A DNA stretch of 62,957 nucleotides, filler included, from Collodictyon triciliatum (taxonomy: Eukaryota): the NCBI GenBank assembly GCA_043381765.1. It is 4 parts of 4 records of this genome, joined end to end, with 100 filler letters (N's around TTAATTAATTAA, not from the genome) between each part and the next. Parts side by side here need not be neighbours in the genome. Positions count along the whole stretch, not along the records: positions 16,664 to 45,743 come from JBHJMP010000968.1; 3 more parts are not named here. One strand, 5' to 3'. The position numbers were made by a program, and so were the translations under genes. The notes under the pieces are model-generated. The model had not been told where the DNA came from and did no database searches. It saw only the letters and a program-made list of their open reading frames with translations. Below, piece by piece: positions 16,564 through 53,380 of this stretch (position 1 is its first letter; each line of letters starts with the position of its first letter).

Positions 16564-16663
16564 NNNNNNNNNNNNNNNNNNNNNNNNNNNNNNNNNNNNN
16601 NNNNNNNTTAATTAATTAANNNNNNNNNNNNNNNNNNNNNNNNNNNNNNNNNNNNNNNNNNNN
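16564..16663. other. Artificial contig-join linker (N44-TTAATTAATTAA-N44)
   Basis: 100-nt N spacer containing an all-frame stop 12-mer; occurs three times identically in the window. Confidence 0.97.
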
Positions 16664-16778
16664 GATATGAGGGGGTCAGTCCCACTGGCGATGTCATAGG
16701 CCTTGGGCTCATCATGCCATTTTCGACGCTTACAAACCTGCCATTTAGTGATCGAGTTGTTGGTTTCCTACCAGACAT
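16664..16778 (-). CDS. 5' fragment of an island ORF (MSGRKPTTRSLNGRFVSVENGMMSPRPMTSPVGLTPSY...), truncated by the contig end
   Basis: AAAAATG start, open to the contig edge, divergent from ORF 16810 across 31 bp. Confidence 0.5.
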
Positions 16779-16809
16779 TTTTATCTAATTAATTGCTATA
16801 TTAGAAATA

Positions 16810-17040
16810 ATGGGAAACAAACTACAAAAAGACGCATCGTTCAAACACGTGGGGGCTCAACCCAAGCCTGTAAATATGTCCAAATCACCTTTTATCACAA
16901 AGCCAAACTTTGGCTACCAAGAAGACGACTATGCACAGAAAAAATTAAACACGCCAGACAAGGTGCACGGTCATTTTATGAAACTTCGTATTGACGATCA
17001 GACCAGAGCCATGCTGCACAGAAAAAGCATTCGCAAATAA
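16810..17040 (+). CDS. Small basic hypothetical protein (76 aa), possible N-myristoylation (MGNKLQK)
   Basis: AATAATG start; stop lies 7 bp from the convergent stop of the SET-Ulp1 gene. Confidence 0.55.
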   Translation: MGNKLQKDASFKHVGAQPKPVNMSKSPFITKPNFGYQEDDYAQKKLNTPDKVHGHFMKLRIDDQTRAMLHRKSIRK

Positions 17041-17047
17041 ATAAAAA

Positions 17048-19399
17048 TTAAGCATATTCATGTTGGAAATCCCAACACTCTTCAATTTCCTGTCTTCTTT
17101 CAGCAAATGAATCGTCTGTATCTGAATCCTTACCTGTAAAGTACCCTCTACCTGCACCAATAAAAGGCAGACCCCAATAAATTTTTCTTTGTAACAAACA
17201 CCATAAAATCAATTTTCTAGCTTCAGCTGATGTTGCTTTTTTACCGTCCATTGGATAATATTTTTTTGGATCAAAATTCAACGCGGCCGAGTAAGCATTC
17301 AGCATGACGTTGACACCGCATTCTGAACAATTATTCTGTTTGTTCAAAGAAAAATGCATATCAATTATTTGATATTTGGAAACAAAACGAGCTACATCAT
17401 CGCTGTTTTGTACAGCCCTGCAAATTTCTGTATTAAAAAACTCCAATAACCTTTTCAGTGCTACGTGATTGTATTGTTTTCTGTTTTCCAAATTAACTCT
17501 TTCCATGTTGTCATAATATCTCAATTGTCCGTGCTCGTTGTCAATCACAAACAATGTCCAGTGATTGCCGTTTACATGACACGGAATAAACACCTTATCA
17601 TATTGAAATATATCTACATTTAGCGTAATATTGTGCAACATTTCAGGCTTGAAATTGCCATTGTCGTCCTGTGCCCTTGATAATAAATAATAAAATGCAG
17701 TGTTAAAAGTGTAACACATAGGATAATAATGATTAGTTTGCGATTCAGGCGAGTAACTTTTTTGACAAATTAAAATCAAAAATGCTGTAATCACATTTCC
17801 ATCAATCCATTTATGATTAACTAGCGTGTTTGCATCTTCGTATGTTAAAGCCACATTGACTCGATCATAATTGTACGTTAATACAGGTGGATCTCCTGAT
17901 CCTGCATTTTGTCTCCATAATTTCATTCTATCTTTTATATACTTATCATTTGAAGATATCCATGGAGTAATTATTGAAAATTTATCGCCCTCAGCTCGTC
18001 TATCCACAAATGTATTAATATAATTCATATGATACAATCTATTTTTCGATGTTACTGAATCTGGATCGTCTGTAATCAAATGTTTTACCTTGTCCATATT
18101 ATCAATCATCAATCCAGGGCGATATATTTCTTCCAAATACAATCTTTTTTCTTCTTCAAAATCCATGCCTCTGTCTACATGGACATCTTCATCTCCATCA
18201 TCGCCAATTTCCACTACGTCTTCGTCACTATCTGGTAAAATATTTGCGTTATTATTACTTATTTCCATCGCGTCTTCATATTCATCGCTCGATGACGTTA
18301 CTTCGTAAATTTTTGGCTTTGTTGGTTTTTTGGGCGAACTGTCAAAACTCTTTGATTTTCTTGAATGTGATGACATTGAACTGTTGTTTGATTTTGCACT
18401 TCCCAATGAATAATTCATGTTTTGATCGTCAATATAATCGTCTCTGGGGTTGTAGTGAGGCACATTGTAACCCAGTGGGAAAGGTATAGTCGCATAAGGG
18501 TCGTGATCTGAATCGTCACTAGAAGACGAGATTTCATGAATACTTTGAGTTGATGCATTTGGATTACTATTACTGTGCGATCCAATCGATGATCGCCGAG
18601 AAGGCGGATTTTGACTCATGGATCCAAACGAATCTATACTATCGTCCATCGTTAGGTCCACAGTTTGTGGCTTTTTTCGGGGCCGTCTGTCGCCTGGTCT
18701 CACGTCTGCCTGATGTTCGTATTGTCCACGTGGCATGGTGTTTTTCATTTGCTCTTTTACCGCCACTCTTGTACCAAAATTTCCGCGTTTACTTCCTTGG
18801 GGCTTAAAATCAGCCATAATTTCTACTGGTTTTTTTTTGCTGGCGTAAATATTTTTGTCTGCCACCACATAAGCTGCTTTTGGATTGTTCATTTTTGACG
18901 AAACCGCAAAATGTGCATTTTCGTGAGACCCTTTTGAATGATGTACGTATCGGCCCGCATCGGTGTCTGTTCTTCTTGCATCGATAAATTTTCCATTTGG
19001 CAATTTTGTCAAATATTTGCCTTGACCGTGATCATAACGCTGGTCTTTCTGTTCTTTAGTCAAAATCTCACCAGTAAATGGCGCAATTACTTCTCCCTCC
19101 TTGACATCTTCGGTGACATAAAGGCCTTTCGGATCGTGTCCTTGCACGTGGCTTTCTTTCACACGCAATCCGTACTGTTCACGCATATGCACCCAACAAA
19201 ATGGATAAGTTGCCACGCATTTTTGGCCACATCGTCTGCCGTCTTTATTGACGGCCTTGCAGCTGTTTCCTTTTTTTGGCTCTAGAGGCTGTCTACTGTC
19301 ATTAATGTTGGTAGCTTTTTGAGACGGGTATTGCAGATCAAACAGCGCTTTGTTGTGATGCTGTGGTCTTTTTTTTAATTTGTTATACACTGACAACAT
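17048..19399 (-). CDS. C3H Zn-finger, SET domain, disordered linker, Ulp1/SENP (peptidase C48) fusion protein
   Basis: CKAVNKDGRRCGQKCVATYPFCWVH; SET motifs KGLYVTEDVKEGEVIAPFTGEIL, IDA, GRYVHHS, EIMADF; C48 motifs WIDGNVITAFL, FNTAFY, DKVFIPCHVNGNHWTLFVID, RYYDNM, QNNCSECGV (H-D-C triad and oxyanion Q). Intronless, 783 aa. Confidence 0.85.
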   Translation of the reverse strand: MLSVYNKLKKRPQHHNKALFDLQYPSQKATNINDSRQPLEPKKGNSCKAVNKDGRRCGQKCVATYPFCWVHMREQYGLRVKESHVQGHDPKGLYVTEDVKEGEVIAPFTGEILTKEQKDQRYDHGQGKYLTKLPNGKFIDARRTDTDAGRYVHHSKGSHENAHFAVSSKMNNPKAAYVVADKNIYASKKKPVEIMADFKPQGSKRGNFGTRVAVKEQMKNTMPRGQYEHQADVRPGDRRPRKKPQTVDLTMDDSIDSFGSMSQNPPSRRSSIGSHSNSNPNASTQSIHEISSSSDDSDHDPYATIPFPLGYNVPHYNPRDDYIDDQNMNYSLGSAKSNNSSMSSHSRKSKSFDSSPKKPTKPKIYEVTSSSDEYEDAMEISNNNANILPDSDEDVVEIGDDGDEDVHVDRGMDFEEEKRLYLEEIYRPGLMIDNMDKVKHLITDDPDSVTSKNRLYHMNYINTFVDRRAEGDKFSIITPWISSNDKYIKDRMKLWRQNAGSGDPPVLTYNYDRVNVALTYEDANTLVNHKWIDGNVITAFLILICQKSYSPESQTNHYYPMCYTFNTAFYYLLSRAQDDNGNFKPEMLHNITLNVDIFQYDKVFIPCHVNGNHWTLFVIDNEHGQLRYYDNMERVNLENRKQYNHVALKRLLEFFNTEICRAVQNSDDVARFVSKYQIIDMHFSLNKQNNCSECGVNVMLNAYSAALNFDPKKYYPMDGKKATSAEARKLILWCLLQRKIYWGLPFIGAGRGYFTGKDSDTDDSFAERRQEIEECWDFQHEYA

Positions 19400-19455
19400 T
19401 TTTATTATATGTCTAGATTTTTATTTATATTGTTTGTTTATTAACTAAAATTGCA

Positions 19456-20436
19456 TTATTCAAAACCTTGCACATAAGTTCCCGGCGGCGCGGGTGGCGG
19501 TCGTGGTGCTGGTCCAAATGAACTTGGTGTTTCTAAATATACCGAATCAGCAGCTCCAAATGATCCACTTCTATTTCCTCTAGTTGCATTTGCTCTTGCT
19601 CGACTCATACTTAAATCTGTTTGGTATGGACGTAATATACTATTTTCTTTAGCCGAAATGTTTTGCACTTTCTCTTGTGAAAGTCCTCCAGTCAATATTG
19701 GTGCAGTGTTTCGTCCTTGCATCATTTCTTTGAAGGTTGTTAGATTGATATTTCCTCCTGTAAGCGCTGCGAAATTAGAATGATTCAATGGATCTGTTGC
19801 ACCAGCTAATTGCTGTGCCGGTTTGATGTAATCATCAAACAATCTGGGCGCAAACATTCCCTTGACGTATTGACGATCTCTCAACTCTTGGTCTTGTTGT
19901 GTAGGCTGCATAAAGTTTGTATTATACAAAGCTGGTTCTATGCGTCCTGTAGCTATAGCATATGCCGTCAACACATCTTCCTGGTTTCTTATGCCCATCA
20001 GATTCATCCTTGCAATTTTTTTCTGAAAATCAAGCGACTCGTCAATAGCTTTCACTCTCCGGTCAAACCATCCAGGATTAATTTCGCGCGACAATTTAAG
20101 TTGCGCTGGGTCACGGTGATCAAAAATCGTGGCATACCAGGCATCAAAATTGCGCATTTCCTGTTGTTTTGCCTTATCATACAAATAATCAACTGTTCCC
20201 TCGTCAAGATTTCTCTGACCCCATGTATCTTGATCCAAAGATAACTTTAACGCCATTTTCGATTCTTTGTCAATGTCGCGATTGTCTTCGAATTTCGCCG
20301 GATAATACGCATCCTGAGCTCTCAACTGTACAGTTTCTAGTTCATTTGGATCAATATGGCCAAGAGTCTGGACGGGTGCGGACCCTTCCACCTCTTTTCG
20401 GCTCATTTGACTTCCCAAAGATTTATGCGAATTCAT
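19456..20436 (-). CDS. Hypothetical island protein (about 326 aa, helical core)
   Basis: Long intronless ORF; first ATG at 20436 (MNSHKSLG) in an AATAATAATG context. Confidence 0.75.
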   Translation of the reverse strand: MNSHKSLGSQMSRKEVEGSAPVQTLGHIDPNELETVQLRAQDAYYPAKFEDNRDIDKESKMALKLSLDQDTWGQRNLDEGTVDYLYDKAKQQEMRNFDAWYATIFDHRDPAQLKLSREINPGWFDRRVKAIDESLDFQKKIARMNLMGIRNQEDVLTAYAIATGRIEPALYNTNFMQPTQQDQELRDRQYVKGMFAPRLFDDYIKPAQQLAGATDPLNHSNFAALTGGNINLTTFKEMMQGRNTAPILTGGLSQEKVQNISAKENSILRPYQTDLSMSRARANATRGNRSGSFGAADSVYLETPSSFGPAPRPPPAPPGTYVQGFE

Positions 20437-20555: not shown

Positions 20556-20997
20556 GGCTATTTGCCTCGGCCCTCACATTCATACTATTTTGAGTGCCCC
20601 TAAATAACAAAGATAGCTCATACACTAACCAAACAGTGCCCATAGTGAGCTCGCCAGCAATACCAGCGCCTCCCTTATTTATTGGCACACCGAAGGAATG
20701 ATTGTAGGGCACAAGAAAGTTGTAATCGTCCTCCGTTCAAATGTCTAACCCTCACGCAATCGAATGCGATTTCATGCAAAATGTATTCGACAAGCAACAC
20801 CACAGACTCGAAATGTTGTCGCACAGGGCTCTTGGTTCAAAGTAACACGCATCCAAAAGGAAGCTCTCTTGAAACGAGCTTTTAGATCTCTTTTGAGTAC
20901 AAGCTCATCGATCACAAAAAAATCTTATTCGCACAGAAGGAAATCTGATTATTGCGCCATCATAGAAAGCAGACTAGACACGAGCACAGCTAAGATA

Positions 20998-45743: not shown

Positions 45744-45843
45744 NNNNNNNNNNNNNNNNNNNNNNNNNNNNNNNNNNNNNNNNNNNNTTAATTAATTAAN
45801 NNNNNNNNNNNNNNNNNNNNNNNNNNNNNNNNNNNNNNNNNNN
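45744..45843. other. Artificial contig-join linker
   Basis: N-TTAATTAATTAA-N spacer. Confidence 0.97.
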
Positions 45844-53280: not shown

Positions 53281-53380
53281 NNNNNNNNNNNNNNNNNNNN
53301 NNNNNNNNNNNNNNNNNNNNNNNNTTAATTAATTAANNNNNNNNNNNNNNNNNNNNNNNNNNNNNNNNNNNNNNNNNNNN
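53281..53380. other. Artificial contig-join linker
   Basis: N-TTAATTAATTAA-N spacer. Confidence 0.97.

Follow-up and report, generated by a model that had tools for sequence, protein, structure and literature searches.

The DNA analysed here, referred to as the window, is a stretch of 62,957 nucleotides from Collodictyon triciliatum (GenBank assembly GCA_043381765.1) in which four parts of four records are joined end to end, positions 16,664 to 45,743 being derived from JBHJMP010000968.1. On the minus strand at 17048-19399, a single reading frame runs from ATG to TAA with no internal stop and encodes a protein of 783 amino acids, designated P0001, in which a zinc ribbon and a SET fold precede a Ulp1/SENP-type cysteine protease of the C48 family. 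The presence of a zinc finger, SET and an intact C48 domain in one polypeptide, as proposed in an initial annotation, is borne out by this frame and by two Pfam domains above their cut-offs: SET (PF00856) at residues 92-186, with 34.8 bits against 22.4 (expectation value, E, 2.4e-8), and Peptidase_C48 (PF02902) at residues 543-714, with 47.8 bits against 20.7 (E 2.1e-12). Since the N-terminal leader is shared with the homologue P0002 from the first residues, the start codon is supported. The SET-protease gene is a real, intact, single-exon eukaryotic gene, found by tblastn as a single copy within the window, and its parts are arranged as follows.

17048..19399, minus strand: whole open reading frame of P0001 (783 amino acids plus stop) with zinc ribbon, SET, linker and C48 protease, collinear with the full-length homologue P0002
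19268..19399, minus strand: N-terminal leader, residues 1-44, conserved with P0002
19172..19267, minus strand: zinc ribbon, residues 45-76 (Cys47, Cys57, Cys61, Cys68, His71), placed by a sub-threshold DUF5763-like match, ligand columns and per-residue model confidence (pLDDT)
18800..19171, minus strand: SET fold, residues 77-200, with Asp89, Phe108, His153, Phe198 and Lys199 at near-invariant cofactor or catalytic sites, placed by Pfam, model and alignment
18155..18799, minus strand: acidic, Ser/Asp/Asn/Pro-rich linker, residues 201-415, predicted to be disordered from composition, motif scan and model
17870..18154, minus strand: helical extension before the protease core, residues 416-510, from the secondary structure of the model at low to medium pLDDT; conserved with P0002
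17180..17869, minus strand: C48 (Ulp1/SENP) catalytic core, residues 511-740 (Trp531, His613, Trp614, Asp630, Gln688, Cys694), placed by Pfam, structure and alignment
17051..17179, minus strand: C-terminal tail, residues 741-783, conserved only with P0002; low pLDDT

By sequence and by predicted structure, the protease of P0001 is complete and SENP1-like. In a sequence search of P0001 against solved structures, SENP1 matched the C-terminal half (residues 515-739, E 3.8e-8) and no NEDP1 entry was found at E 1 or better. The two halves of the protein were folded separately, each with an alignment of relatives (residues 40-215 and 416-783), and the model of residues 416-783, with a pLDDT of 76.7, retrieved SENP1 as its top Foldseek match (2ckg_A; E 9.6e-15, template modelling score, TM, 0.84 on the target), followed by SENP2, Ulp1, SENP3 and SENP5, with NEDP1 (7.8e-8) and bacterial CE-clan enzymes ranking lower. 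The catalytic triad, which had been called intact, is found in the motifs NHWTL (612-616), YYDN (628-631) and ECGV (693-696), where His613, Asp630 and Cys694 match conserved columns. Compared with 36 other C48 domains, P0001 carries the consensus residue at every catalytic column tested; His613 and Trp614 are each conserved in 36 of 36 relatives, Asp630 in 33 of 36, and Gln688 and Cys694 in all 33 rows that are not gapped there. Likeness to Ulp1 and SENP1-SENP2 (MEROPS C48, clan CE) therefore covers the fold, the His-Asp-Cys triad, the oxyanion Gln (Gln688) and the two Trp of the Gly-Gly tunnel (Trp531 and Trp614). Short motifs or unstructured regions are what usually direct SUMO proteases to their targets, and the non-catalytic N-terminal region of P0001 would serve targeting as it does in the SENPs; here, however, the targeting region consists of a zinc ribbon and a SET fold, and no SENP/Ulp protein so described was found in the literature. 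A further difference from canonical Ulp1/SENP proteases is that the catalytic domain of P0001 forms a long branch outside their group and that its C-terminal tail is common to P0002 only.

This placement comes from a tree for which three short rows were dropped and 34 C48 cores kept, and in which P0001 and six further proteins of the same domain order (introduced below) lie outside a group of 24 canonical-looking Ulp1/SENP-like proteases (80/84). The seven fusion proteins cluster in this tree, as tightly as in only 1 of 500 label shuffles, but they do so on long branches. Their position is one of the features that would fit a protease acting on something other than SUMO, whether NEDD8, ubiquitin or, after the manner of viral maturation proteases, a Gly-Gly site within a partner. 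Substrates vary within the CE clan; XopD, NopD, OtDUB and NEDP1 are all among the structural matches of the model, and the upstream neighbour of the gene carries Thr-Gly-Gly where three of its short homologues end. Such a specificity is nevertheless judged improbable, given that sequence and fold alike place SENP1/2 and Ulp1 first, at least six orders of magnitude ahead of NEDP1, and that the Gly-Gly of the neighbour is missing in its homologue P0153. P0001 itself contains no Gly-Gly, for which reason self-cleavage was also discarded.

For the N-terminal half, Legionella SET enzymes were the solved-structure match by sequence (residues 90-190, E 6e-7), and the DUF5763 match of residues 45-60 stayed below its cut-off (14.8 bits against 26.3). 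The model of residues 40-215 has a pLDDT of 83.5; values of 90-96 are reached over most of model residues 11-40, which contain the ribbon, with 76 in its first block, and beyond approximately residue 200 the model is disordered (pLDDT < 50). The top solved match of this model is LegAS4 (8swi_A, E 1.4e-8), followed by MLL1-4, EZH2 and SETD8 (E 1e-8 to 1e-7). Directly before the SET fold, the ribbon has the Cys...Cys...Cys-x2-His pattern of its family. Among 120 related modules, the zinc ligands Cys47, Cys57, Cys68 and His71 are conserved in 113, 115, 120 and 119, respectively. A profile of the zinc-ribbon-SET family built from A2, of which P0001 is itself one row, scored 172.8 bits against P0001 over positions 6-166 of 171. 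With the motifs in register, a profile of the family matched MLL3 (3.5e-16) and EZH2 (8.1e-16); the Asn of the family thereby falls on the Asn of the MLL3 NHS motif, and the final Tyr of the ELxxDY-type motif is matched by the family's Tyr.

Cofactor and catalytic sites of SET domains are known by the motif names Gly-x-Gly, NHS and ELxxDY, and the initial annotation had pointed to RYVHHS (150-155) and EIMADF (193-198) as non-canonical versions of two of them. Both departures are confirmed, and the erosion is wider than first noted, extending to Phe108, Asp89 and Lys199. When columns are counted over the 120 other modules, His153 stands in place of the Asn of NHS (Asn in 110), Phe198 in place of the invariant Tyr (Tyr in 107), Phe108 where 117 modules have the second channel Tyr, Asp89, with an added Pro next to it, where 104 have the first Gly of Gly-x-Gly, and Lys199 where 102 have the Gly that follows the catalytic Tyr; the Tyr-Trp pair that follows the Lys199 position is absent as well. 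With P0001 included (121 modules), all four canonical residues are present in 86, one is missing in 26 and two are missing in eight, of which five are only 91-149 residues long, so that some of these misses may be gaps. P0001 is the sole module that departs at all four near-invariant positions tested. Because this departure is unique among the 121 modules, the SET domain of P0001 probably serves binding rather than catalysis, an interpretation drawn from sequence and in agreement with the reader role that had been suggested for it: binding is likelier than methyl transfer. By profile and by fold, P0001 contains a SET domain; the cofactor and catalytic motifs are what it lacks. In P0002, the Asn (now Gln) and the first Gly are already lost with both Tyr retained, which points to a stepwise decay of the SET domain, and in P0007, P0080 and P0084 all four canonical residues are present.

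These last three proteins carry a fully canonical SET domain beside the protease, and they are part of the case for P0001 as an active two-enzyme protein, in which SET would methylate lysine with His153 replacing the Asn and Phe shifting the product state, so that methylation and deSUMOylation would be coupled on one target. The SET fold is kept at high confidence, Gly92, Gly110, Tyr129, Asn161 and Glu193 are retained, and SET8 Tyr-to-Phe mutants have, by the titles of their entries, been crystallised with substrate and cofactor product. Set against this are the change of all four near-invariant positions, the additional loss of the Gly after the catalytic Tyr and of the next Tyr-Trp pair, and the decay already visible in P0002; two active enzymes in P0001 are therefore considered rather unlikely. 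P0001 has the same SET fold as MLL/SET1, EZH2, SETD8 and LegAS4/RomA, but differs from such minimal SET methyltransferases in having an N-terminal zinc ribbon instead of a Cys-rich post-SET region and in replacing the NHS Asn, the invariant Tyr, the second channel Tyr and the first Gly of Gly-x-Gly. In the loss of catalytic residues, it resembles the inactive PR/SET domains.

In the initial annotation, SET and C48 were not known to occur in one polypeptide, yet the fusion is not unique: P0002 is recorded with both Pfam families and the same order recurs among the best matches of P0001. A word-index search returned P0002 (846 amino acids) as the one relative. It is collinear with P0001 from the first residues to the C-terminal tail, with an overall identity of 39%, reaching 51% in a stretch of 248 N-terminal residues and 36% in one of 382 C-terminal residues. 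An exhaustive search of 1.84 billion representative proteins yielded 1496 matches at E <= 0.001, 74 at 1e-10 and one, again P0002, at 1e-30. Among the best 150 matches, which were examined further, 120 were to the SET part and 35 to the protease part, and six displayed SET followed by C48: P0002, P0007, P0034, P0061, P0080 and P0084. On the evidence of these searches, the architecture is rare, yet it constitutes a small family. The word-index search found no short relatives of the SET part, a blank that reflects its limit of sensitivity, as the exhaustive search gave more than 100. In full-text literature searches, judged by titles and abstracts, no published description of a natural SET-Ulp1 protein was found; as far as their excerpts show, papers that contain both Ulp1 and SET terms are mostly chromatin or methyltransferase studies mentioning Ulp1 once or twice. 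Built from two well-known domains, the fusion is not unique, and P0001 stands out by an unusual SET that was probably inactivated naturally.

Of the other SET matches among the best 150, most consist of 150-200 residues, stand alone and have this zinc ribbon too. Such stand-alone proteins, together with retroelement-borne ones, are the nearest relatives of residues 45-200 of P0001, with which they share the Cys/His pattern at 27-37% identity (23 aligned). They differ from P0001 in being single-domain or embedded in retroelement Pol, with a canonical SET in nearly all cases. A Pfam scan of 42 of the 150 matches (the fusion candidates, some top matches and most SET matches of approximately 250 residues or more) placed the zinc-ribbon-SET module inside polyproteins of long terminal repeat (LTR) retroelements in 10. 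Five are of the Copia type, with SET between integrase and reverse transcriptase (P0042, P0062, P0071, P0081, P0128), and five of the Ty3/chromodomain type, with SET after the chromodomain or between RNase H and integrase (P0043, P0074, P0086, P0110, P0116). In P0005, a DOT1-type methyltransferase is the fusion partner of the module. In a tree of 104 full-length SET modules, the retroelement copies group in a supported clade of 14 (Shimodaira-Hasegawa-like approximate likelihood ratio test, SH-aLRT, 97) and P0001 and P0002 are sisters (100); the remaining fusion proteins are scattered over three other positions, where the backbone lacks support. The approximately unbiased test did not reject a tree in which all seven fusion proteins form one clade (p 0.219), and the fusion may have arisen once or several times.

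The family thus described consists of zinc-ribbon-SET proteins that are also carried by LTR retrotransposons, and the analogy to the chlorovirus protein vSET that had been drawn initially is weak: vSET is absent from the 42 Foldseek matches listed to rank 50, near-duplicate chains omitted, and from the best 60 profile matches. Among predicted viral structures, the best match is FirrV-1-G2 of the phaeovirus Feldmannia irregularis virus a, which aligns over ribbon and SET with 26% identity (E 1.5e-11, TM 0.74 on the query) but which, at 229 amino acids, is too short to hold a C48 domain as well. Other giant-virus SET proteins match at the level of the fold only (TM approximately 0.5). Pattern scans of IMG/VR with P0001, A3, A5, A6 and A7 gave no sequence relative except one weak C48 match (L001), and neither a scan of Joint Genome Institute metagenome contigs with A5 nor one of prokaryotic genomes with P0004 detected relatives; the ESM Atlas held no usable match for P0001.

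These connections give some weight to the possibility that the gene belongs to a mobile element, or to a large DNA virus that has been endogenised, and acts for that element, for instance by lifting SUMO-dependent silencing, instead of being a host gene. Beyond the module in five Copia and five Ty3/chromodomain polyproteins, its clade of 14 and the phaeovirus match, Ulp1 domains are common transposon cargo according to passages of PMC2836005, in which Ginger1 and Mutator transposases are described as carrying Ulp1 and one Ginger1 family also a PHD reader. In addition, the gene is intronless and stands among tightly spaced reading frames with a 56-base AT-rich spacer, and a relative of its upstream neighbour is found on a 6.6-kb contig of dense intronless orphan frames. 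On the other side, a Pfam scan of the window, covering the four longest open reading frames and 82 stop-to-stop frames of at least 100 amino acids without N, revealed no transposase, reverse transcriptase, integrase or capsid gene within reach of the gene, and no LTR, terminal inverted repeat (TIR) or notable flanking repeat surrounds it. Terminal repeats, mobility enzymes and several copies, as expected of a transposable element, were not found within the window, where the copy number is 1; base composition is host-like, the IMG/VR scans gave the result stated above, and the neighbour's relative is not accompanied by a SET-protease gene. A mobile or viral gene is considered unlikely.

Similar arrangements are known from mobile elements. 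P0001 is like Ginger1 and Mutator/KI-MULE in that C48 is joined to a chromatin- or DNA-directed module, but unlike them it has no transposase, TIR or multi-copy signal in the window, and the partner is SET and not integrase/PHD. SETMAR likewise joins a SET domain to a module linked to mobile elements; its partner, however, is a mariner transposase, its SET is active, the gene is primate-specific (according to the abstracts of PMC9062482 and PMC8327481) and the sequence context is unrelated. Fusions of SET with transposons have also been reported in general terms, with no mention of Ulp1 in the passages concerned (10.1101/2021.11.30.470311).

Evidence on how the gene evolves comes from freshwater metagenomes, in which contigs hold a relative that is approximately 94-96% identical over the gene. 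One DNA contig spans 17335-19771 in three pieces, between which lie a diverged stretch of 91 bases and a replaced one of 128 bases, and so takes in the two domains as well as the first part of the upstream gene. The SET-protease gene is maintained in nature. Contigs of a close relative from RNA libraries match at 17623-18134, within the protease half, and at 19573-19950 and 16700-17037, with none over the SET half, and may stem from DNA carry-over. The sole indel listed within the gene is one of 9 bases, located in the linker, that keeps the frame. Codon counts rest on the 34 of 221 differences that were listed: across residues 509-612, in the catalytic core, they comprise 7 synonymous and 4 non-synonymous codons, and across residues 395-491 they comprise 4 synonymous and 14 non-synonymous ones. 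The linker is the part that changes fastest in the wild relative. In P0001, it separates the two halves by approximately 200 residues, is abundant in Ser, Asp, Pro and Asn in a composition scan and contains a basic patch, RRPRKKP (237-243), that may act as a nuclear signal on the basis of its composition, as well as a hydrophobic VVEI (395-398) inside an acidic run. Similar hydrophobic cores are present in P0002 and P0061, and three of the seven fusion proteins pass a strict scan for SUMO-interacting motifs. The rapid change of the linker, together with the lost catalytic residues of SET, could be taken as signs of a decaying or non-functional gene. The frame of 783 codons is intact, all protease residues are retained, collinearity with P0002 persists at 39% overall identity, and in the wild relative the indel is in frame and the changes in the catalytic core are mostly synonymous, all of which makes decay very improbable.

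Taken together, P0001 is best read as a chromatin-tethered protease that would remove SUMO near its docking site, with methyltransferase function of SET lost and protease activity kept, an interpretation based on alignments and predicted models that we regard as evenly balanced between holding and failing. According to this reading, the 783-residue protein would probably be nuclear, and its N-terminal half consists of a Cys3-His zinc ribbon packed onto a SET fold. Lacking the residues that hold S-adenosyl-methionine and line the lysine channel, this fold would be a pseudo-methyltransferase that docks on a lysine-bearing partner, most likely a histone tail or a nucleosome. The acidic, fast-evolving and presumably disordered linker of approximately 200 residues connects it to the Ulp1/SENP1-type cysteine protease, which in turn would strip SUMO, or less likely another ubiquitin-like modifier, from proteins near the docking site. 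Precedent for such a design is given by transposases with a Ulp1 domain, among them the Ginger1 family that also has a PHD reader (PMC2836005). Since other members of the family keep a canonical SET domain, the ancestor was probably a two-enzyme protein, and the lineage of P0001 would have retained protease activity only.

Several observations weigh against this reading. Retrotransposon-borne copies and a phaeovirus protein are among the closest relatives of the SET module, and the gene itself belongs to a group of three or four packed intronless reading frames with spacers of 8, 56 and 328 bases; it may therefore be of selfish or viral origin and function for something other than the host. 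A change of Tyr to Phe in SET enzymes can shift the product state rather than abolish activity, and SET8 Y245F and Y334F occur by entry title among the structural matches of the SET model; the SET domain of P0001 may thus retain residual methyl transfer. Finally, VVEI was considered as a SUMO-interacting motif and rejected, as in the wild relative its first Val is replaced and three residues are inserted, according to the listed differences.

In heterochromatin and in the silencing of transposons, SUMO acts as a central switch. A SET-C48 family would physically link the recognition of histone tails to SUMO removal, and the existence of one natural member with a presumably catalytically silent SET domain, P0001, next to the canonical P0080 and P0084 offers a natural comparison of what SET contributes. 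As the same SET subfamily is common to retrotransposons, a latent algal virus and cellular-looking genes, it is also relevant to the ways in which mobile elements acquire chromatin enzymes or pass them on. A speculative extension, which we hold to be possible but unlikely, is that genomic parasites use the zinc-ribbon-SET module as a portable tool acting on chromatin, present in Copia and Ty3 retroelements and a phaeovirus and joined to DOT1 or Ulp1, and that SET-Ulp1 proteins are counter-silencing effectors which dock on histone tails and remove SUMO from the heterochromatin machinery, the gene in the window being a domesticated or resident copy in which docking outlived the methyltransferase. 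The central question is whether the host or a genomic parasite benefits from the gene.

The genomic setting is that of a draft eukaryotic nuclear scaffold with gaps in the assembly. One RPL9 exon scores approximately as well against the vertebrate ribosome as against that of Dictyostelium. The same window contains intron-split Vps26, RPL9, ARID, Pre-SET/SET, Kelch and RRM genes as well as a long WD40 gene, and the GC content at third codon positions (GC3) of the SET-protease gene, 0.33, falls within the host range of 0.25-0.67. The gene lies within a 14.4-kb contig, tightly packed with the following neighbours.

16810-17040, plus strand: convergent open reading frame of 76 codons, beginning with Met-Gly-Asn and ending 8 bases from the SET-protease stop
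19400..19455, minus strand: AT-rich spacer of 56 bases, with AATAAA-like and TATAAATA-like words by direct reading
19456..20436, minus strand: upstream neighbour, 326 amino acids from the second ATG, a conserved family with no Pfam or solved-structure match
20764-21477, plus strand: intronless PHO80-type cyclin (Pfam Cyclin, E 1.7e-6)

The 76-codon frame is covered by both DNA and RNA-library contigs of the wild relative. The cyclin and the upstream neighbour diverge, their starts lying 328 bases apart, and the cyclin has a GC3 of 0.51 against 0.33 for the two genes beside it. Nine further homologues of the upstream neighbour were found, with identities from 86 to 36%, and the ESM Atlas returned only scores of 0.80 or less for it. 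A scan of metagenome contigs with A7 gave one locus, a relative of 48% identity at 2811-3749 of L002, the 6.6-kb contig mentioned above. Three short homologues of the neighbour end at Gly-Phe-Leu(-Gly), aligned to Thr-Gly-Gly-Leu of the protein in the window, and from this alignment the longer forms may carry a removable tail. The neighbour was considered as a substrate of the protease and is retained as a lead only, Thr-Gly-Gly being absent in P0153 and the gene pairing in L002.

Intron-split chromatin genes are located nearby on the minus strand (22750-26283), with Pre-SET and SET exons at 24250-24955 and an ARID exon at 22750-23214. A weak tblastn match of P0001 to 24379-24492 corresponds to this ordinary cellular SET gene. 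Rfam and tRNA scans of the window gave no matches. The joins between the parts of the window (16564-16663, 45744-45843 and 53281-53380) each consist of 44 N, 12 bases and 44 N and are linkers, not biology; at the first of them, the 12 bases read as a stop word in all frames, and the SET-protease gene lies approximately 400 bases from one join.

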